In this document: piece after piece, positions 5,526 to 35,604 of the stretch
How positions within the stretch are numbered: the stretch's first letter is position 1
Layout: the number at the start of each line of letters is the position of its first letter
IMG/VR virus record: IMGVR_UViG_3300025000_000064
Coordinates: 59,606-123,605 of that record
Strand: one strand, 5' to 3'
Origin: a virus
DNA length: 64,000 nucleotides
Program-made: the position numbers and the translations under genes
Notes under the pieces: generated by a model
What the model was told of the DNA's origin: nothing
Seen by the model: the letters and a program-made list of their open reading frames with translations, nothing else
Database searches by the model: none

Positions 5526-6086
5526 TTATGATTTTACATTTAATATGGCTTTCATTATTACATGAACCAATATCATATGTATGTCTTCCGAAATCTGCAT
5601 ATCGTCTATGTTTGCATTGACGGAGTGTTTACTAATTTGTTTTAATATTCCACCACCATATCCTGTTATTCCTATTGTTATGGCTCGCTTGAGATTAGCG
5701 TATTCAATTGCCTTTATTATATTCTCTGAATTACCGCTTCCAGAAATACCTATTACAACATCACCTTTATTTAAAAAATTCTTTAATTGGTCTTCAAATA
5801 TAGATTCATAACCAACATCATTTGCATAAGCTAACATAGTGGGAATATTATCATTTAAACAGATAACCTTAAACATTTTTTTATCTTTTTGTTTTGTACC
5901 TTTATTTATATCACAAGCAAAATGAGAAGCCGTTGAGGCACTTCCCCCATTCCCCATGATAAATATTTGTTTTTCATTATCTCTTGCTTCTAATAATATA
6001 TTTACAACTTTTTTTATTTCATTTTTATCAATATTATCTATTGTTTTCTTTAGTCTGTCAAAATAATTATCTATTGTTGTCATCAT
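5526..6086 (-). CDS. gmhA: Sedoheptulose-7-phosphate isomerase (SIS domain)
   Basis: IFIMGNGGSASTASHF, ANDVGY, GDVVIGISGSGNSENI, QISEDIH. Confidence 0.95.
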   Translation of the reverse strand: MMTTIDNYFDRLKKTIDNIDKNEIKKVVNILLEARDNEKQIFIMGNGGSASTASHFACDINKGTKQKDKKMFKVICLNDNIPTMLAYANDVGYESIFEDQLKNFLNKGDVVIGISGSGNSENIIKAIEYANLKRAITIGITGYGGGILKQISKHSVNANIDDMQISEDIHMILVHVIMKAILNVKS

Positions 6087-7032
6087 AAATTATACTTGCT
6101 CCTTTGTCTTCAAACTTAAAATCTACTTCTTTTAAATCTATTAAGCTTCTTCTCAATTGTTCTTGATTTTCCTCTTTTACATAAAGTAATAAGAATCCAC
6201 CTCCACCTGCACCTAGCAACTTGCCACCGTCTGCTCCATTTTTAATAGATAAATTATAATAATAATCTATCTCTGTATTGCTTATCTCTGAAGATAGTTC
6301 TTTTTTATACATCCAGCCTGTATGTAATACATCTCCAATTGAATCAATGTTTCCTACGCTCAATGCAGAATTTAACATTTTAGCTAAGTCAACCATTTTA
6401 CTTAAATTATTATGATTAATCTCATAGCCTTCTAACACTTTATTTGCAGACCTAACATTTCCCAAATAAAATAAAAGCAAGTTGTTTTCAAGTTTATTTT
6501 TATTTCTTTTATCAAGCTTTATACTATTTACAGTAACAGAATCATCTTGGTTAAATATTATATAGTTTAACCCTCCGTAAGCAGAGGCGTATTGGTCTTG
6601 TTTGCCAATGGGACACTTTAATTTATCTATTTCAATATCACAGGCTTTATCTGCTAAATATTCTTTATTACAGTGTTTTTTATTATATGTACTACAGAGG
6701 TTTGTTAACCCTACTGTGAATGCAGAAGAAGAACCCAATCCTGTGCCTGATGGAATATCTGCACTTGAATTAAAGTCGACGCCTTTTATATTGTATTCCT
6801 TAAAGGTTTCTCTGATTATATTGTGTTTTATTTTATCAACAGAACTTACTTTTTCAATTTCAGAATACTTAAGAAAATAATTATCCTTTTCAAAATAAGG
6901 ATGCATGGAAAGGTAAATGTATTTATTTATAGTAACAGATAAAACAGCTCCACCATATTCCTTATAGTGTTCTCTTAAATCACTACCGCCACCCGCAAAA
7001 CTTATTCTAAATGGAGTTCTTGAAATAATCAT
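6067..7032 (-). CDS. hddA: D-glycero-alpha-D-manno-heptose-7-phosphate kinase (GHMP family)
   Basis: SRTPFRISFAGGGSD, DIPSGTGLGSSSAF, IGKQDQYASAYGG, GGKLLGAGGGGF; adjacent to gmhA. Confidence 0.92.
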   Translation of the reverse strand: MIISRTPFRISFAGGGSDLREHYKEYGGAVLSVTINKYIYLSMHPYFEKDNYFLKYSEIEKVSSVDKIKHNIIRETFKEYNIKGVDFNSSADIPSGTGLGSSSAFTVGLTNLCSTYNKKHCNKEYLADKACDIEIDKLKCPIGKQDQYASAYGGLNYIIFNQDDSVTVNSIKLDKRNKNKLENNLLLFYLGNVRSANKVLEGYEINHNNLSKMVDLAKMLNSALSVGNIDSIGDVLHTGWMYKKELSSEISNTEIDYYYNLSIKNGADGGKLLGAGGGGFLLLYVKEENQEQLRRSLIDLKEVDFKFEDKGASIIYDDNNR

Positions 7033-12599: not shown

Positions 12600-13457
12600 T
12601 TATTCCTTTATATAAAATAAATCTGCTTCATTATTTATATCTAATATAAATTCTTTTGTTTTGCTTATTATATTTTCATATATTTCTTTATGTTGTTTGG
12701 CATCGTTTATTAAATTAGCATCTCTGTCTGGATGATTGCCATGCTTGTTATTTCCGTAATCTATAACATTAAACTGCAATGAGCAATTTCCACATTTCCA
12801 ATATCTCAAATCTATTCCCTTGTATCTATCTCCGAATGTTTTTATTTTAAAATCATCTTCAACTAATCTTTTACCGCAAGAAGGACAAAATAATTCAGTC
12901 TCGTCACAATAATTATACTGTGCAACTTCTGATACAAAGTCAATTAAATCTTTTTTATTATTAATCTCTTCCAGTTCTTTAGATAAATTTTTTATTGTTA
13001 ATAAATCCTTTTCTCTCGCTTCCCCTAACTGTGTTCTATTTATTTTCTCTAACTTATAAATTTTATTATATAAATCATTTTTAGAATCAACATCATTTAC
13101 TTTTTTATATGAAAGCTCAATCAAATTTTTAATACATTGTTCTTTTTGCCATAAAAAATAAGCAAATTCTTTACTAAATACTTCTTTAACAATAAATTCA
13201 TTTGTAGCAAACACTGGAGCTTTACAACAACAGCCATCTTCAACAACGTCTCCAATTGTTTCTATTAAGGCTATTTCGTATTCTCTGTCCTTATATACAG
13301 ATTGTTTCCAATACCACATGCCATCAGTTATAGTCTGATATAACTTAAAGCCCACACCGTATATAGTTGGGTCATCATATAGTTTAACATGTTCTCCCAA
13401 TTCATACTTAATGCCATTATCTATCAGTCCTTTTCTAAATATTTTGTAACCTATCAT
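12600..13457 (-). CDS. Phage hypothetical protein with a Zn-ribbon
   Basis: MIGYKIF N-terminus typical of phage proteins; CPSCG...CGNC. Confidence 0.6.
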   Translation of the reverse strand: MIGYKIFRKGLIDNGIKYELGEHVKLYDDPTIYGVGFKLYQTITDGMWYWKQSVYKDREYEIALIETIGDVVEDGCCCKAPVFATNEFIVKEVFSKEFAYFLWQKEQCIKNLIELSYKKVNDVDSKNDLYNKIYKLEKINRTQLGEAREKDLLTIKNLSKELEEINNKKDLIDFVSEVAQYNYCDETELFCPSCGKRLVEDDFKIKTFGDRYKGIDLRYWKCGNCSLQFNVIDYGNNKHGNHPDRDANLINDAKQHKEIYENIISKTKEFILDINNEADLFYIKE

Positions 13458-13484
13458 TTTATTATCCTTAATTTCTATATAAAT

Positions 13485-13513
13485 ATATTAAACGATAAAA
13501 TAACATCTGTCAA
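13485..13513 (-). promoter_or_regulatory. Sigma70-type promoter
   Basis: TTGACA-17 bp-TAATAT upstream of the ORF starting at 13457. Confidence 0.65.
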
Positions 13514-13519
13514 TATATA

Positions 13520-13546
13520 ATAAAAAGATGTCTTTCGACATCTCTT
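13520..13546 (-). terminator. Intrinsic terminator
   Basis: AGATGTC-GAAA-GACATCT followed by TTTTATT on the minus strand. Confidence 0.85.
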
Positions 13547-13574
13547 ACAAAGGAGCAATTATTTATTATAAACA

Positions 13575-14070
13575 ACCAATAAATAATAAATTATAAAACA
13601 TAGACAAGGTTTATTTTTTACTTGCAAGCTTTCACCATACAGCCATTTACCATTATTCAGACACATACTAGGTTAATTGTACTTTTTAACCCTTAACATA
13701 TGAAGAGATTGGTTACTCTTAGCTTTCACATCCAATATCATATTTTATATAGCCGTTATTTTCAAGCGACATTTGCTACTCGCACTCCGTACATAGTCTT
13801 TCGTATCTGATATTAACCAGATACCAATCGCAGTTTATCACGTTTCTTTGTTCAAATGTATCCTCACTTCACTAAGGTAACATAAAAATTCAGATAGCTT
13901 ACACAAGACTTACAGATTCCTTATGGTTTTATAGTTACTTACAGTTATTAACAATTCGTCTTTGACAAAACTATGAAGGGCATTCCAACCCTCTTATTAA
14001 TACACTTTTGAGAACTTGGCATTCTCTTCAGTCACTATATTTTACAATTTATTATTTAATTATCATGGTT
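13575..14070 (-). ncRNA. Large (about 480-500 nt) structured non-coding RNA, class unknown
   Basis: No ORF; 23-bp terminal helix (14035-14057 with 13581-13603) whose two mismatches are G-U pairs only on the minus strand; many hairpins; dedicated promoter and terminator. Confidence 0.8.
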
Positions 14071-14083
14071 CGATTATATTTTT

Positions 14084-14112
14084 ATTATGTATTATAACAT
14101 CTTACTTGTCAA
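14084..14112 (-). promoter_or_regulatory. Sigma70-type promoter for the large ncRNA
   Basis: TTGACA-17 bp-CATAAT. Confidence 0.75.
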
Positions 14113-14151
14113 GTAGTGAATTATTTTTTTAATTATCGCATTTGTTATTGA

Positions 14152-14484
14152 CTATAATTTATATATGTTTTCTTTGTTTAATGCGCTTTTATACACAGAT
14201 ATAATTTCTCTAAACCCACTGCATGTGAATTCTAAAGACTCGCTATATACAATATTGTTAACACACATTCCAACTATTGATAAACAGTCAAAATTATCTG
14301 GGTCTATAAGCTTTACCCTAATGTCTATTAATGGGCTAATATAACTGAAGCAACTTTCCCTTTCGGATATTTTTATATTAGCAAATTTAGTAAGTAAATA
14401 TTTTAATAAAAAATATATATATCCATCTTGGTTTTTGTCTATCAGAACACATAAAGAAAACCTATTGTTTTTCATAATAATCAT
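14152..14484 (-). CDS. Hypothetical protein
   Basis: 110-aa ORF in the operon. Confidence 0.55.
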   Translation of the reverse strand: MIIMKNNRFSLCVLIDKNQDGYIYFLLKYLLTKFANIKISERESCFSYISPLIDIRVKLIDPDNFDCLSIVGMCVNNIVYSESLEFTCSGFREIISVYKSALNKENIYKL

Positions 14485-14634: not shown

Positions 14635-15213
14635 TTAATACTCCACACCTCGCCTACTTTTTACTCCGATATCTATATAATGCTTTATAGGGTTCATTCC
14701 TGTTATCAGATGGGCAACTTCAAATAATTTTTCTCTTATCTCTGGTCTACCTATTCTTCCAGTCATTACCACTTCTAACCTTTTTGGTTTATTTTTTAGA
14801 AAATCTAAAACTTGGTCAATGTGTATTGTGTCCAAATCTAAAGCTATGTTTATTTCATCTAATACTATCATGTCATACTCTTTGGCATTATGTATGATGT
14901 AGAACCATCCCTTTTGTGCCTCCAATTTGTCTTCGTCTGTTAAGTTGGCTTTATATACAACTTTATCAAATCCACAATTTTTATATTTTAAATTTTTTCT
15001 TATATTGTCCTTTAATGAATTTAAAGCGTTATATTCTCCGTACTTGCACCTATCTCCTCCTTTGCAGAACTGCATGATAAGAACTTTCCACCCAGAACCT
15101 AAAGCCCTTAAAGCCAAACCCATAGATGCAGTAGTCTTTCCCTTCCCTTCTGATGTGTATATTTGTATATATCCAGTTTTTCTAAACTTTGGATTTTGCA
15201 ATTCTTCTGTCAT
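14635..15213 (-). CDS. cobO: Cob(I)yrinic acid a,c-diamide adenosyltransferase (CobO/BtuR family)
   Basis: IQIYTSEGKGKTTASMGLALRA, QFCKG, YDMIVLDE, EVVMTGR and KH...G...RRGVEY. Confidence 0.92.
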   Translation of the reverse strand: MTEELQNPKFRKTGYIQIYTSEGKGKTTASMGLALRALGSGWKVLIMQFCKGGDRCKYGEYNALNSLKDNIRKNLKYKNCGFDKVVYKANLTDEDKLEAQKGWFYIIHNAKEYDMIVLDEINIALDLDTIHIDQVLDFLKNKPKRLEVVMTGRIGRPEIREKLFEVAHLITGMNPIKHYIDIGVKSRRGVEY

Positions 15214-16130: not shown

Positions 16131-16826
16131 TTAATCATCATATGCCTCCATTTCTTTTTTAATTTTATCTAAGATTTTATCTCTTTTTGAATAAATAGCT
16201 TTCTTTGAAATATTTAATTTTGAAACCAAATCATCAATAGATAGTCTTTTGTTATTGAACAATCCATAATAATCTATCAAAAATTCTTTATCAAAAACAT
16301 TTATGTTGGACAAATCAAATATTTTTATTATATCTAAATTAATATCTACATCGGAAAATGATTTGTCATTATATAATGTTGTAGCCCCTTTTGTTACAAT
16401 TGACTTTTTATTTTTCTTATTCTCCTCATTTTCACGCACAAGATAATTCTTATTGTTATCAAATTTATCTCTTACTTCTCCAACGAGCAAGTTATTATTA
16501 TAGAATTTATCTTCCGCTAAAAAAAATCTTGTTGAATAATAATTTATATTATTTTTTAAATATGTTGAGAATTTCATTTTTTTGGAATATTTAAAGTTCT
16601 CAACACTTTTCATAAAGGTTATCATACAATGAGATTGAACATCTTCAAAATCTATAAGATTGTTTTTGTTTTTGCAAATAACGTTAGCCTCTTTGTTTAT
16701 TAAACCAATCACCTTGTAAAGTATTTTGTTTAAGGTTTCCTTGTCTTTTTTCTCTTGATATAGCAAAACTAAATCTTCTGTGTCTTCTCTGACATCTTTA
16801 AACTTACTAACTATGTTGTTATACAT
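16131..16826 (-). CDS. Phage-encoded sigma70-family factor
   Basis: Region 2-like FEDVQSHC...SVENF...KFSTYL and region 4-like YYGL...LSIDDLVSKLNISKKAI...KILDKIK. Confidence 0.75.
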   Translation of the reverse strand: MYNNIVSKFKDVREDTEDLVLLYQEKKDKETLNKILYKVIGLINKEANVICKNKNNLIDFEDVQSHCMITFMKSVENFKYSKKMKFSTYLKNNINYYSTRFFLAEDKFYNNNLLVGEVRDKFDNNKNYLVRENEENKKNKKSIVTKGATTLYNDKSFSDVDINLDIIKIFDLSNINVFDKEFLIDYYGLFNNKRLSIDDLVSKLNISKKAIYSKRDKILDKIKKEMEAYDD

Positions 16827-27495: not shown

Positions 27496-28391
27496 TATTC
27501 CCATCCTTCGTTGCTTGCCAACATATTGTCAATATCTGATTGAGATATTTGTGATGATGTTGCATTACTTGGAGCAGATGTTGCTTGTTGCTTTACTTCT
27601 TCCTGTTTTGGCTTGATTGCTTTTCCTTGCATTGTTGGTATTTCAATGTTTGATAAATCAATAACTTTCTCTGGGTCAATGCCAAAATCACTATTTCCAC
27701 CAAAATTATTATTTGATTTTTGGACAATCTCAATTGAAATAATTTTACATCTCAAGAATAATTTACTTTCTTCGCCTTCTTTTCTTGATGGAGAACATAT
27801 AATATCTGTATCAATATTTACAATATCTCCAGTGCTTACCCACAAAGGAACAGTTGTTCCATCTTTTTTAACAATCTCTGTCTGTTTGACTCCATCAACA
27901 ACTTGATATATGTCAATCTTGTCTTCGAGAGTATAAATAGCATTTAGTTTGTATCCTGTTTCCAATAAATCTGTTACTGCTTGTTTTTGTACTGTGTCAG
28001 TTCCTTGAATAGCAGAAGCTTCTTTAAATAATTTCATTCTTCCTGTTTGTTTTACAATTTTACCATTTTCTTCAATTTCTTCTTCTTTCACCATAAAGGC
28101 TTTAGAGTCTTTATATGGGAATGTTAATGTTAAATGGTTCTTTGATTTCTTTGATTCTTTCAACGGAGAAACAACAGATTGAGGAGCAATACCATTTTTT
28201 GCTTCATATGCTGATTCAACTGCTGACTTAAGTGCTTTAAAAACTTCATTAACATAAACAGCTTGAGGAGTTCCTTTTTCAAATAAAACAGATAAAGATT
28301 TTCCGTTAATTTTCGGGAAAGCCTTCAAAGAAACTCTTGTGTTTAAATTACAGAACCCAACTTCCAAATTTTCAAATTTTACTCTTTTCAA
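27495..28391 (-). CDS. Possible single-stranded DNA-binding protein
   Basis: First gene of the leftward replication operon, beta-rich, with a flexible Q/S/A linker and an acidic-aromatic tail (DIDNMLASNEGWE). TTG start with an AGAGGT RBS. The function is inferred. Confidence 0.4.
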   Translation of the reverse strand: MKRVKFENLEVGFCNLNTRVSLKAFPKINGKSLSVLFEKGTPQAVYVNEVFKALKSAVESAYEAKNGIAPQSVVSPLKESKKSKNHLTLTFPYKDSKAFMVKEEEIEENGKIVKQTGRMKLFKEASAIQGTDTVQKQAVTDLLETGYKLNAIYTLEDKIDIYQVVDGVKQTEIVKKDGTTVPLWVSTGDIVNIDTDIICSPSRKEGEESKLFLRCKIISIEIVQKSNNNFGGNSDFGIDPEKVIDLSNIEIPTMQGKAIKPKQEEVKQQATSAPSNATSSQISQSDIDNMLASNEGWE

Positions 28392-28433
28392 AATTTACCT
28401 CTTTTTTCTAAACTTACTAAACTCGATATATTA

Positions 28434-28462
28434 AACTTACCACTTGGATTTATTTTTGTCAA
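28434..28462 (-). promoter_or_regulatory. Sigma70-type promoter (leftward)
   Basis: TTGACA-17 bp-TAAGTT with an upstream TG. Confidence 0.55.
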
Positions 28463-28522
28463 TATATGTTATTTTCCAGTCATTTGTTATAAAAATCTCA
28501 ACAAAATATATCAACTATTTTT

Positions 28523-28551
28523 AGTATAGCATTATGGTTTTTATTTGTCAA
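28523..28551 (-). promoter_or_regulatory. Sigma70-type promoter (leftward, extended -10)
   Basis: TTGACA-17 bp-TATACT preceded by TGc. Confidence 0.8.
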
Positions 28552-28624
28552 CATATTAAAAATATCATCAATAAAATAGCCAATAATATATATTATACTT
28601 ATAAGAATTATTCTAAGCGGTTAG

Positions 28625-28992
28625 TCTAATTAGAATAACACTAATTTAGAATAAAATATATAGATTAATACTTAACTTACAACATAACTTAATACATAGA
28701 ATAATACTTAACTATATTCTTAACTAAATAATAACTTAATATTTAACTATATTCTAATTAACTTACTACATATTAACTTACTTCTATTAACTGACTACAA
28801 TTTAACTTACTTCAATTAACTTATATCTAATTAGAATATTACAATATAACTTAATACATATTAACTAAATACAATAACTTATTACTTAACTTACTACTAA
28901 CTAAATACTTATTAGACTAATATATTAACTTAATACTAATTAGAATAATACTATATAGTATTATATATAAATGTTACCTATACAGGTAACAT
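28625..28992. repeat. Low-complexity iteron-like array with palindromes; candidate replication origin
   Basis: About 17 same-strand TAACT units at 11-15 bp spacing, 5 TAGAAT, then the palindrome AATACTATATAGTATT (28947-28962) and the hairpin ATGTTACCT-ATAC-AGGTAACAT (28971-28992). It lies between divergent replication operons. Confidence 0.6.
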
Positions 28993-29185
28993 ATAATTAT
29001 AGCATGTTTTTAGAAAAAGTTCCTAAAATTTTATTTATTTTAAAATAATCAAATTAACCCAATCCAAAAATAATTAAAATATGAGAATATTCCAAGGAGC
29101 GTAGCCCTCTTACTTAAAATTAGTAAGGGTTATGGAGGATAGTTGTTGTAACAATTATTAGTATAACAATTTAATTAAATATATA

Positions 29186-29214
29186 TTGACAAAGATTATG
29201 CGATGATATATACT
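29186..29214 (+). promoter_or_regulatory. Sigma70-type promoter (rightward)
   Basis: TTGACA-17 bp-TATACT upstream of the thymidine kinase gene. Confidence 0.85.
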
Positions 29215-29239
29215 TAAAATATAGTGAGTTGAGGTAAAT

Positions 29240-32868: not shown

Positions 32869-35604
32869 ATGATAACAATGGATAAAAATGAAATAATATT
32901 AACAAAGGAACAAAATAATATCTTGAAAACATTAAATAATGACCAAGAATATATTGTCATAAACGCTTTTGCTGGAGCATCAAAAGCACAACCACTATAT
33001 TCTAAAATATTAACCCCTAGTGGTTGGACAACAATGGGCAAAATAAAAATTAATGATGATATAATAGGCTCAGACGGCAATATATATCAAGTAGTTGGAG
33101 TTTATCCGCAGGGTGTAAAAAAAATAAATAGAGTAACATTCTCTGATGATTTTTATACTGATTGTTGTGATGAACACCTATGGTCTACCAAAACAGATAA
33201 AGAAAGATTCTACAAGAAACAACCAACCGTTAAAACAACTTTAGATTTAAAAAATACTCTATATGAGTCTAATAAAAATAAAACAAGAATTGTTAAAAAC
33301 CATTCTATAGAATGGTGTAAGCCTATTAATTTTCCAAAAAGGGAATTAAATATACATCCTTATGTATTGGGTATTATAATAGGAGATGGCTCTATTGATT
33401 CTAATGGCAATGTAATAATAACAAATCCAGAGATAGATGTAATGGATAAAGTTAAAAGATATTTACCAGAAAATATTTATTTGAAAACAAGAGATTATAA
33501 AGATAGATGTATAGCATATGGTATTAATTGTAATACCAGATACAACGTATTCAGTAAATATATAAAAGAATATGGGCTAAATGGTAAAAAAAGTTGGGAA
33601 AAATATATACCTGATGATTACATGCTATCCTCTGTAGAAGACAGACTTAATTTATTACAAGGATTAATAGATTCAGACGGATGCGTAAATAAAAATACTT
33701 CTAATGTTACATATACCACTACTTCTAAAAAATTAGCAGAAAATATTATAGATTTGGTTCAATCACTAGGGGGAAGAATAACAATTTCTGAAAAAATGGG
33801 GAAATATACTAAAAATAATATCACTAAAGAAACAAGAGTTTTTTATTCACTTAATATATTATTTTATAATAATATAATCCCTGTTTCATCAGAAAAACAC
33901 TTAAGTAGATTTGTAAAAGCAAAAAGACAATATGAAAGATATATTAAAAATATAGAACAAATAGGAGAAGAGGAGTGTCAATGTATAAGAGTAAACGCTC
34001 CAAATAGTCTATACATAACAGATAATTATATATTAACACATAACACCACTATTTGTATAGAATTAATTAAAGAAATGCTAAAAAATAATAACAGTAGTAA
34101 AATTCTTTACACATGCTTTAATAAGCTTATAATGGAAGAAGCCAAAAGTAAATTCAAAAGGTTAGGTCTGAATATAGAATGCAGGACTGCTCACTCTTTG
34201 GCCTTAAAAGAATTACAAAAAATAAAAAAAGTAGAATTAATATTTTATTTAGATTATGATTTCTTTAAGAAAAAGAAAAAAGATAAGAAATCAACCTTTA
34301 TTGGAGTAAAATATTTAATAGATAAATATACCTCATGCGATTTTAATATGGAAGAGTTCAAAACTATATCTTCAGATAATTTATACAAAGACAATAAGAT
34401 AACAGCATATGAAAATAGAGATATTGACGAATTTGAAAATATATATAATTTATTAATAAAAGAAAATAAATATATGCACAATATGTATTTAAAAGAATTT
34501 GCTTTATTAAATACTTCCATAGAAGAATTCGACTATGTGCTAGTTGATGAGTCTCAAGATTTGGACACAGCAATGCTTTCTATTCTTAAAAACATGAAGT
34601 GTAAGAAAAAATACATAGTTGGAGATTCTTTTCAAACAATATATGCTTCATTTAGAGATACGGTAAACGCTTTAGATATTTTAGCAGAAGAAGACAAGTC
34701 CAATGTTTATCCATTATCTAAAAGCTTTAGGTTTCATGACGATATAGCAGAATTGGCAAATGTCATTTTAGAAGGAAGTGGCTCTGTATTAAAATTAAAA
34801 GGTAATGGCAAAAATAAAAATAAAAACGTATGTGATAAAAATATAACTGTCTTATTTAGAAGTAATTTTGGGATATTAAATTGGGCATGCAAACGGCTAA
34901 AATTAGAAAAAAATATAAAGTTTAATTTCAATGGGATAAGTGATGGCAAATCCGCAAAAGATTTTAATGAATTGTATTACGATTTTATTAGCTTGCTAAA
35001 ATTAATGTCACAAGACAAGAAAGACAAATATTTTGAATCAGAGCTAGATAGGTTTTTTCCAGTTCTAAAACTGTCTCCCAGAGTTCTTAAAATGAAAAAG
35101 ATAGCTTCTGAAGAAAAGAAATCATTATCTGGATACCTTAGAGAACAATGCGAAAAGAATGTAATGCTAGACCAAGACTTAGTAAATTATTGGAAGTTTG
35201 CAGAGGTAACATGGGTAGATTTAATAAACAAACTAAGGAGTTTAGAAAATTCCCAATATGTAAAAAATCCAGATAAGATTTATACTCTTTATACAACACA
35301 TAAGGCAAAAGGGTGTGAGTGGGATAATGTGATAATAGCTGAAGATTGTTGGTATAGCCATGAATATGGTGTTGATGATGAAGATTACAAACAGGAAGCT
35401 ATGAATATTATATATGTGGCATTGACTAGGAGCAAAGAGAAATTAACTATAGAATCAGAAATAATTAATGATTTATTAAACATAGAAGGCGAAACAGAGC
35501 TGAATGACTTCTTTTCTTCGGGAGATTCTTTTACATCTGTTGAATTAGAAGATGGAACAATTGAAGATGATTATTTAGAAACAGAAGAAACATGGGGAGA
35601 ATAA
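32869..35604 (+). CDS. UvrD/Rep-like SF1 helicase carrying an intein
   Basis: AFAGASK/TT Walker A split by the intein, LVDESQD, VGDSFQTIY, LSKSFRF, TTHKAKGCEWDNV and YVALTRSK. Confidence 0.9.
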   Translation: MITMDKNEIILTKEQNNILKTLNNDQEYIVINAFAGASKAQPLYSKILTPSGWTTMGKIKINDDIIGSDGNIYQVVGVYPQGVKKINRVTFSDDFYTDCCDEHLWSTKTDKERFYKKQPTVKTTLDLKNTLYESNKNKTRIVKNHSIEWCKPINFPKRELNIHPYVLGIIIGDGSIDSNGNVIITNPEIDVMDKVKRYLPENIYLKTRDYKDRCIAYGINCNTRYNVFSKYIKEYGLNGKKSWEKYIPDDYMLSSVEDRLNLLQGLIDSDGCVNKNTSNVTYTTTSKKLAENIIDLVQSLGGRITISEKMGKYTKNNITKETRVFYSLNILFYNNIIPVSSEKHLSRFVKAKRQYERYIKNIEQIGEEECQCIRVNAPNSLYITDNYILTHNTTICIELIKEMLKNNNSSKILYTCFNKLIMEEAKSKFKRLGLNIECRTAHSLALKELQKIKKVELIFYLDYDFFKKKKKDKKSTFIGVKYLIDKYTSCDFNMEEFKTISSDNLYKDNKITAYENRDIDEFENIYNLLIKENKYMHNMYLKEFALLNTSIEEFDYVLVDESQDLDTAMLSILKNMKCKKKYIVGDSFQTIYASFRDTVNALDILAEEDKSNVYPLSKSFRFHDDIAELANVILEGSGSVLKLKGNGKNKNKNVCDKNITVLFRSNFGILNWACKRLKLEKNIKFNFNGISDGKSAKDFNELYYDFISLLKLMSQDKKDKYFESELDRFFPVLKLSPRVLKMKKIASEEKKSLSGYLREQCEKNVMLDQDLVNYWKFAEVTWVDLINKLRSLENSQYVKNPDKIYTLYTTHKAKGCEWDNVIIAEDCWYSHEYGVDDEDYKQEAMNIIYVALTRSKEKLTIESEIINDLLNIEGETELNDFFSSGDSFTSVELEDGTIEDDYLETEETWGE
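32986..34044 (+). mobile_element. Class-3 intein (353 aa) with a LAGLIDADG homing endonuclease
   Basis: Starts Ala (AQPLYSKI), block B HLW, block F CQCIRV, ends LTHN before Thr; LAGLIDADG motifs LGIIIGDG and LQGLIDSDG. Confidence 0.9.

Follow-up and report, generated by a model that had tools for sequence, protein, structure and literature searches.

An ORF-free gap in a block of co-oriented phage genes

The stretch of DNA analysed here (henceforth the window, 64,000 nt) corresponds to bases 59606-123605 of an IMG/VR viral record of 123,605 nt that is complete according to CheckV. The phage genome, which has 28.1% GC across its whole length, carries genes for DnaE, DnaB, DnaG, a UvrD-like helicase, a ligase, a sigma-like factor and a tape-measure protein. 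A gap of 694 nt (13458-14151 of the window) separates a gene encoding 110 aa from one encoding 285 aa, and the genes that surround it all lie on the minus strand. The features discussed below, in the order in which they would be transcribed, are as follows.

14152-14484, minus strand: upstream neighbour, 110 aa, no family match
14084-14112, minus strand: sigma-70-type promoter; -35 TTGACA at 14112-14107, 17-nt spacer, -10 CATAAT at 14089-14084, 11 of 12 matches
14035-14058, minus strand: 5' arm of the closing helix, about 19 nt downstream of the predicted start site
13944-14034, minus strand: module A, a GAGAAU/GUUCUC hairpin and a three-way junction (UAUUAAUAA/UUGUUAAUA, GAGGGU/GCCCUU and UUUGUC/GACGAA)
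13785-13917, minus strand: module B, a multi-branch domain closed by UCUGUAAGUCUU/AAGACU..UACGGA
13604-13784, minus strand: 3' third of the interior; helices AAGAG/CUCUU, GGGUUAA/UUAACCU and others with low pair probabilities
13580-13603, minus strand: 3' arm of the closing helix, also able to form a 12-bp AU hairpin with 13558-13569 instead
13513-13546, minus strand: intrinsic terminator; 10-bp stem AAGAGAUGUC/GACAUCUUUU (13546-13523), GAAA loop, U-rich tail
13485-13513, minus strand: separate promoter of the 285-aa gene, TTGACA-17-TAATAT, 10 of 12 matches, immediately after the terminator
12600-13457, minus strand: downstream neighbour, 285 aa; weak N-terminal DUF7666 match, coiled-coil middle, C-terminal CxxC...CxxC zinc ribbon

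The longest ORFs in the gap are 35-38 aa, and an earlier note on this DNA was right to describe the stretch as ORF-free, since nothing exceeds 38 aa anywhere in 13458-14151. Stop codons, mostly TAA, are frequent in six of the six frames, recoding of TAG as Q or of TGA as W opens no ORF, and the read-through translations of the three minus-strand frames match no Pfam or PHROG family at E <= 1. On the grounds of the TAA-rich stops, the missing recoded ORF and the lack of a protein-family match in the minus-strand frames, a recoded ORF or a pseudogene was rejected as the content of the gap.

The helix-closed part of the gap (henceforth the core) has a GC content of 0.334, which puts it at the genome's 91st percentile; values in the remaining ORF-free gaps are 0.19-0.30. 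In AT-rich genomes, an elevated GC content outside ORFs is one of the classical signs of a structured RNA. It had also been claimed that the interior is richer in G than its surroundings, which was not borne out: the minus-strand GC skew of the candidate (0.28) is ordinary for the co-oriented gene block (mean 0.23, SD 0.09) and it is the GC content alone that is raised. Since both GC content and G skew resemble those of coding sequence, they also fit a reading that we regard as unlikely, though it deserves serious attention, namely that the gap is a non-functional spacer or a fully decayed gene in which the terminator merely ends the upstream operon, from DnaE through the 110-aa gene. The minus-strand frames, however, retain no protein-family remnant, and as much as 0.7 kb of useless DNA is seldom retained in large genomes of virulent phages.

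Two other non-coding regions were noted in the same genome. The gap at 28392-29239 (848 nt, 20% GC) contains divergent promoters with 11 of 12 matches at 28551-28523 on the minus strand and 29186-29214 on the plus strand, and is likely to be the main divergent control region, or an origin. A replication origin at the gap studied here was rejected, as it has no iterons and is GC-richer than the other gaps, the AT-rich gap at 28392-29239 being the better candidate. Outside the window, C1:25779-28184 is an ORF-free region of 2.4 kb with 22% GC in which the best palindrome of the genome (a perfect 38-bp dyad at 27796-27833) is accompanied by further inverted repeats, and which may serve as an origin, in packaging or in regulation.

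Signals that would delimit a transcript of about 555 nt

The TTGACA-17-CATAAT promoter that the earlier note had placed at 14084-14112 was confirmed: it matches at 11 of 12 positions, is the best site within +/-1.5 kb and is among five of such quality on the minus strand in 20 kb. Judged by its position, transcription would start at about 14077. An alternative, overlapping promoter, TTCACT-18-TATAAT with an upstream TG, spans 14120-14091. Genome-wide, 19 of the 29 sites with at least 11 of 12 matches are found on the minus strand, which carries most genes. The GAAA-capped intrinsic terminator reported before is likewise present, with a 10-bp stem and a U-tract at 13546-13523, and is the strongest among four terminator-like sites in 20 kb. 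The predicted primary transcript thus extends on the minus strand from ~14077 to ~13520 and measures ~555 nt. Together with the terminator, the promoter of the 285-aa gene would insulate the candidate RNA unit from the next gene, and the proposal of a self-contained unit consisting of promoter, ORF-free body and terminator therefore holds, the downstream gene having a promoter of its own.

On its upstream side the unit is less isolated. No terminator was found between the 110-aa gene (14152-14484) and the promoter of the candidate RNA, and read-through transcripts would consequently carry the candidate RNA too. Together with the co-orientation of all genes, the missing terminator agrees with a second reading, which we consider rather improbable: that the gap specifies a cis-acting RNA, either a structured leader or an inter-operon processing site, and not a trans-acting gene, with RNase III cleavage or conditional read-through of the terminator setting the levels of the downstream products (the 285-aa zinc-ribbon protein and phosphoesterases). 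This is at odds with the presence of the TTGACA-17-TAATAT promoter immediately after the terminator, from which the downstream gene could be transcribed independently.

A point against an RNA gene is that this AT-rich DNA contains no more promoter-like and terminator-like sites than its shuffles do; in a genome of 28% GC, matches of both kinds occur at shuffle frequency, which suits the spacer reading, in which the promoter-like site would be fortuitous or redundant. What speaks against such a reading is that the regional-best promoter, the 20-kb-best terminator and the second-best inverted repeat of the genome (see below) coincide in the correct order and on the correct strand.

Two weaker signals lie inside the unit: a terminator-like hairpin, GAGGGU/GCCCUU followed by CAUAGUUUUG (13970-13993, minus strand), ~100 nt past the start, and a promoter-like site, TTGAAA-17-TATGAT (13737-13765, minus strand). 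By their positions, these could define shorter RNAs. Elsewhere on the minus strand, directly downstream of DnaE, a 231-aa sigma-70 region-2-like protein is encoded at 16131-16826 (PHROG RNA polymerase sigma factor, E = 6.6e-14), which suggests that middle or late transcription may be phage-directed; in that case consensus sigma-70 promoters, including that of the RNA candidate, would mark early units.

A near-perfect helix joins the two ends of the unit

The ends of the stretch had been described as forming a long helix with only two mismatches, both of them G-U on the minus strand. The helix was confirmed and is marginally longer than reported (24 bp, earlier given as 23 bp): its two arms form 24 consecutive pairs, comprising 22 Watson-Crick pairs and two that are G-U in the minus-strand RNA and A-C in the plus-strand RNA. 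The predicted pair probability of this closing helix is 0.98; it encloses 431 nt and thereby defines a helix-closed core of 479 nt. When the full unit is folded, 8 weaker pairs (3 of them G-U) are added to the closing helix past an 11-nt bulge, so that pairing would begin a few nucleotides from the predicted 5' end.

The score of the closing helix is 18, compared to a maximum of 14 in shuffles, and none of 1000 dinucleotide shuffles of the gap reached 18. Only one inverted repeat within 1 kb scores better anywhere in the genome. When the 124-kb genome was block-shuffled, an inverted repeat of equal score appeared in one of 20 shuffles, which counts against an RNA gene and indicates that the weight of the helix comes from its position and not from the repeat alone. 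The same frequency is what a non-functional spacer would lead one to expect, with the inverted repeat as a neutral feature of the DNA. The nature of the mismatches points the other way: if a perfect repeat received two substitutions at random, the chance that each of them produced a G-U pair on the transcribed strand would be, by our estimate, ~0.03-0.06, which is suggestive of selection on the closing helix at the RNA level.

A long duplex of this kind also resembles an RNase III-type substrate, as would suit a cis-acting processing site. In addition, the 3' arm has its alternative 12-bp hairpin with 13558-13569, and AUCUCUU (13708-13702) can pair with the 5' arm of the terminator and also with 14030-14020, both of which would be in keeping with a cis-acting element. 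These alternative pairings are, however, at chance level, the mean best score in shuffles being ~10.

Two modules of the interior are predicted to fold well on the minus strand

Fold z-scores were determined relative to shuffled sequence, and an unbiased scan was carried out with 120-nt sliding windows on both strands. The whole unit folds at z = -3.7, whereas the 431-nt interior has z = -1.01 and is equalled by 18 of 100 shuffles, which counts against an RNA gene and indicates that the signal of the whole unit comes mostly from the closing helix and the terminator. On the minus strand the interior folds at -89 kcal/mol compared to -60 kcal/mol on the plus strand, but shuffles show an equal gap, and the difference between the strands is thus an effect of composition. 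The earlier note had listed a series of hairpins and called the interior full of them. All of the listed hairpins exist; with the interior as a whole at shuffle level, only modules A and B stand out.

Module A, at the 5' side of the interior, folds at -21.8 kcal/mol with z = -3.39 (1 of 200 shuffles as good) compared to z = -1.54 on the plus strand, and module B has z = -2.76 (1 of 200 shuffles) compared to -1.34, the z-scores of the modules being somewhat inflated by selection bias because the module boundaries were cut from the MFE fold. In the unbiased 120-nt windows, module A retains z = -2.9 compared to -1.5 on the plus strand, and module B -2.0 to -2.3 compared to -0.5 to -0.8. Module B contains a CCUUA/UGAGG hairpin and a 9-bp hairpin, GUAUCUGGU/AUCAGAUAC (13824-13803), the latter of which is significant alone (z = -3.91). 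In marked contrast to the two modules, no thermodynamic signal was detected in the 3' third of the interior: 13660-13784 has z = -0.33, the 120-nt windows range from -0.2 to +1.75, and this third tends to fold worse than shuffles, which again counts against an RNA gene. So does the finding that no GNRA-capped hairpin is predicted except for that of the terminator, and that no recognisable tertiary motif was seen.

A possible ATTGGT/ACCAAT pseudoknot, also proposed earlier, did not survive closer inspection. The complementarity is present where it had been located, but with ~0.2 expected partners per 6-nt loop at this base composition and ~ten loops, such a pairing is expected by chance.

These results bear on the spacer reading from both sides. 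An interior at z = -1.0 is what it would predict; modules A and B, whose stability is confined to the minus strand, in a unit whose helix mismatches are both G-U on the transcribed strand, are not. The strand specificity of modules A and B (z = -3.4 and -2.8 on the minus strand, -1.5 and -1.3 on the plus strand) is in turn support for an RNA gene.

The candidate matches no known RNA family

None of the 4227 families of Rfam 15 gave a match at gathering score (cmscan) in the window or in the remaining 59.7 kb of the genome. With relaxed filters and a threshold of E <= 10, the 801-nt region at 13400-14200 yielded only sxy, tpke11 and CLRN1-AS1, which are chance matches. The covariance models of ROOL (RF03087) and GOLLD (RF01998) did not match even at E <= 10, nor was there an Rfam match to OLE, RNase P, tmRNA, 6S, SRP, group I or II introns or self-cleaving ribozymes. 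Transfer RNA-like modules within the candidate RNA were looked for with ARAGORN and Rfam and rejected, as neither found any. It is therefore very improbable that the gap holds a diverged representative of one of the known families of large RNAs (ROOL, GOLLD, OLE, RNase P, tmRNA, group I or II introns): its size range and phage setting would fit, but all 4227 families are without a match at gathering score and ARAGORN detected neither tRNA nor tmRNA.

The outcome for the earlier note is mixed. Its suggestion of a possible new class is compatible with the results, there being no match to the large families that it named (ROOL, GOLLD, OLE, RNase P, group I and group II introns) at E <= 10, while membership in ROOL or GOLLD fails; and its comparison with large, densely structured RNAs of the ROOL/GOLLD type is not supported, given the missing Rfam matches, a genome devoid of tRNA genes and an interior at shuffle level.

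Regulatory families were equally without a match. Two genes upstream of the gap lies a gene for an ATP:corrinoid adenosyltransferase (BtuR/CobO/CobA; 14635-15213, minus strand; Pfam E = 3.7e-50), which is an unusual auxiliary gene for a phage, and a cobalamin riboswitch was considered for this reason. Neither the cobalamin/AdoCbl riboswitch of Rfam, at E <= 10 in the 801-nt region around the gap, nor any other riboswitch, T-box or leader family matched in the region, which argues further against a cis-acting leader.

Searches for relatives of the element and its flanking genes found almost nothing beyond one phage species

Searches for relatives of the element by several methods were negative. 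With blastn there was no match in GenBank phages and plasmids, and nhmmer found no homologue in 168 loci (2 Mb). Only short AT-rich matches were returned by BLAST from 34 whole phage records with a DnaE relative and from 401 genomes of the order Gastranaerophilales (the candidate host, see below). In IMG/VR, two words from the core had 0 matches, a hairpin word had 2 chance matches and a word from the repeat arm had 4 unpaired chance matches. Single-sequence covariance models of modules A and B recovered only the element itself in 35 phage records and, in 151 genomes, one match at E = 0.04, which is at chance level. The phage genome contains no second copy of the element, and none of the IMG/VR loci of DnaE relatives has a helix-closed gap analogous to that of the candidate. 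Conservation of the element is hence not demonstrable, a point in favour of a non-functional spacer.

The same searches bear on a further possibility, which we consider quite improbable: that the gap is a DNA-level element, its inverted repeats being MITE-like insertion ends, recombination sites of an inverton or paired protein-binding sites. A unit of 479 bp with terminal inverted repeats fits both MITEs and invertons, the latter known, for example, from the cwpV and flagellar switches of Clostridioides difficile, and its position between a promoter and downstream genes would be apt. However, the element is single-copy in the phage, the only IMG/VR matches of the repeat word are the four unpaired ones, and BLAST found nothing similar in GenBank phages, plasmids, the 34 related phage records or the 401 candidate-host genomes. 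Furthermore, no target-site duplication is evident, only on one strand are the helix mismatches compatible with RNA pairing, and the phage encodes no serine or tyrosine recombinase (PF00239, PF00589; integrase/resolvase), although an enzyme of the host could act in its place.

The flanking genes are, judged from their sequences, orphans. No relatives of the 285-aa and 110-aa proteins were found in contigs from viruses, metagenomes or genomes; for the 285-aa protein, what is found are copies of at least 99% identity, which represent the same phage species in several metagenomes, and one partial homologue (127 aa, 38% identical) on a 2.5-kb Logan contig. A search of a set of 5.8 billion proteins and of a set of 1.84 billion representatives returned only the query itself and this 127-aa partial homologue, which could not be located in IMG/VR. 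In the 401 candidate-host genomes there were weak partial matches to the middle region of the protein (26-39% identity), which were not counted as homologues. The 285-aa gene thus appears virtually an orphan. At residue 213 its product has V in the window and G in the other cluster members that cover this position, one of which is recorded on a contig of 123,605 nt, reflecting either a single-residue population variant or a difference between records.

The phage and its possible host

No tRNA or tmRNA genes were found in the 124-kb genome by ARAGORN, and a genome without tRNA genes, Rfam families or a serine or tyrosine recombinase indicates that this gut phage is probably virulent. When its DnaE was compared with IMG/VR, GenBank phages and a metagenome collection, the best identity was ~41%, and the closest matches among GenBank phages were human faecal phage fragments, from which we conclude that the lineage is very poorly sampled.

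The phage also encodes a GHMP kinase (6067-7032, minus strand), an HddA-like gene of the heptose operon, whose best genome matches are ~60% identical. About 10 of 27 of these matches are in gut MAGs of Candidatus Gastranaerophilales (Melainabacteria), and matches in other phyla score similarly; the gene gives a tentative hint that Gastranaerophilales may be the host. The UvrD-like helicase (911 aa; 32869-35604, plus strand) has LAGLIDADG_3 and Hom_end domains at residues ~248-336, upstream of the matched helicase domains, and likely contains an intein.

A candidate non-coding RNA gene

Overall, the locus brings together the top-ranking promoter, the top-ranking terminator and the second-ranking inverted repeat in the right order around a GC-raised, non-coding body with strand-specific modules, and an RNA gene is its most likely explanation. 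We assign a probability of roughly one half to the reading that the gap is an early-transcribed orphan non-coding RNA gene, in which the panhandle helix would probably serve processing or stability. The element is therefore a plausible, unproven candidate, for which we infer transcription, processing and a role in trans.

In such a gene, host RNA polymerase would initiate at about 14077 and be released by the terminator at about 13520, which would yield a primary transcript of ~555 nt. The ends of the transcript would pair into the near-perfect 24-bp helix around 431 nt, and within these the 5' three-way-junction module and the central multi-branch module are modelled as well folded and the 3' third as loose. 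By analogy with known substrates, RNase III could then cleave the two-turn helix and so free a core of ~480 nt both from its own transcript and from read-through transcripts; alternatively, the duplex may shield the ~480-nt core from exonucleases. It is because a 24-bp duplex is of the size and form that is cut by RNase III that we take the helix to be a putative processing or stability element. The core might act in trans, early in infection, as a scaffold or decoy for a host or phage protein.

More speculatively, the element could represent a new class, that is, a large, structured phage RNA acting in trans, whose ~480-nt core is excised or stabilised by the 24-bp panhandle and serves early in infection as a protein-binding scaffold or decoy, in a deeply branching lineage of gut phages that may infect Gastranaerophilales (Melainabacteria). 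We hold this fuller version to be possible, yet doubtful.

The candidate is well delimited but unvalidated, and its value is that of a target for transcript mapping in gut metatranscriptomes and not of a discovery in itself. If it is real, the RNA comes from a phage lineage with almost no sequenced relatives, and its long terminal duplex offers a simple experimental handle, through RNase III cleavage and pull-down of the excised core.

Comparison with known systems

Candidate structured RNAs have been identified before in IMG/VR by Fremin et al. 2023, who described intergenic elements in uncultivated phages, some of which are expressed in human faecal samples (PMC10690425). Those candidates measure 29-151 nt, and at least 3 distinct sequences with covariation were required (PMC10690425). 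The element described here, in contrast, has a length of ~480-555 nt and is effectively a singleton, and the 2023 catalogue could therefore not have included it.

With regard to processing, RNase III cuts the long-range helices that flank 16S and 23S rRNA as well as sites in the early mRNA of phages T7 and SP82. The closing helix would be comparable to these in being a near-perfect duplex of at least 22 bp that is formed from both sides of a long RNA, here in what may be an early unit of a phage. Unlike in these systems, the RNA enclosed by the helix of the candidate is neither rRNA nor mRNA.

To our knowledge, only a few large phage RNAs of the stand-alone type exist, among them ROOL and GOLLD, and they have no known function. 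ROOL and GOLLD often occur beside tRNA genes and in prophages, and GOLLD has a length of ~800 nt. The candidate differs in these respects, its genome having neither tRNA genes nor an integrase and its unit measuring ~555 nt. ROOL averages 581 nt and its fold comprises six junctions and three pseudoknots (PMC5737381), and both ROOL and GOLLD form RNA-only assemblies (PMC12286853). Compared to ROOL, the candidate has a much sparser fold, with about three predicted junctions in a 479-nt core and a sole proposed pseudoknot that is at chance level. What it shares with ROOL and GOLLD is that it is predicted to be a non-coding gene that stands alone in a phage genome and measures several hundred nucleotides. 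If real, it would thus resemble at most the ROOL/GOLLD-like stand-alone phage RNAs, as a member of neither family, and each independent large phage RNA that is built differently adds to an understanding of their role.
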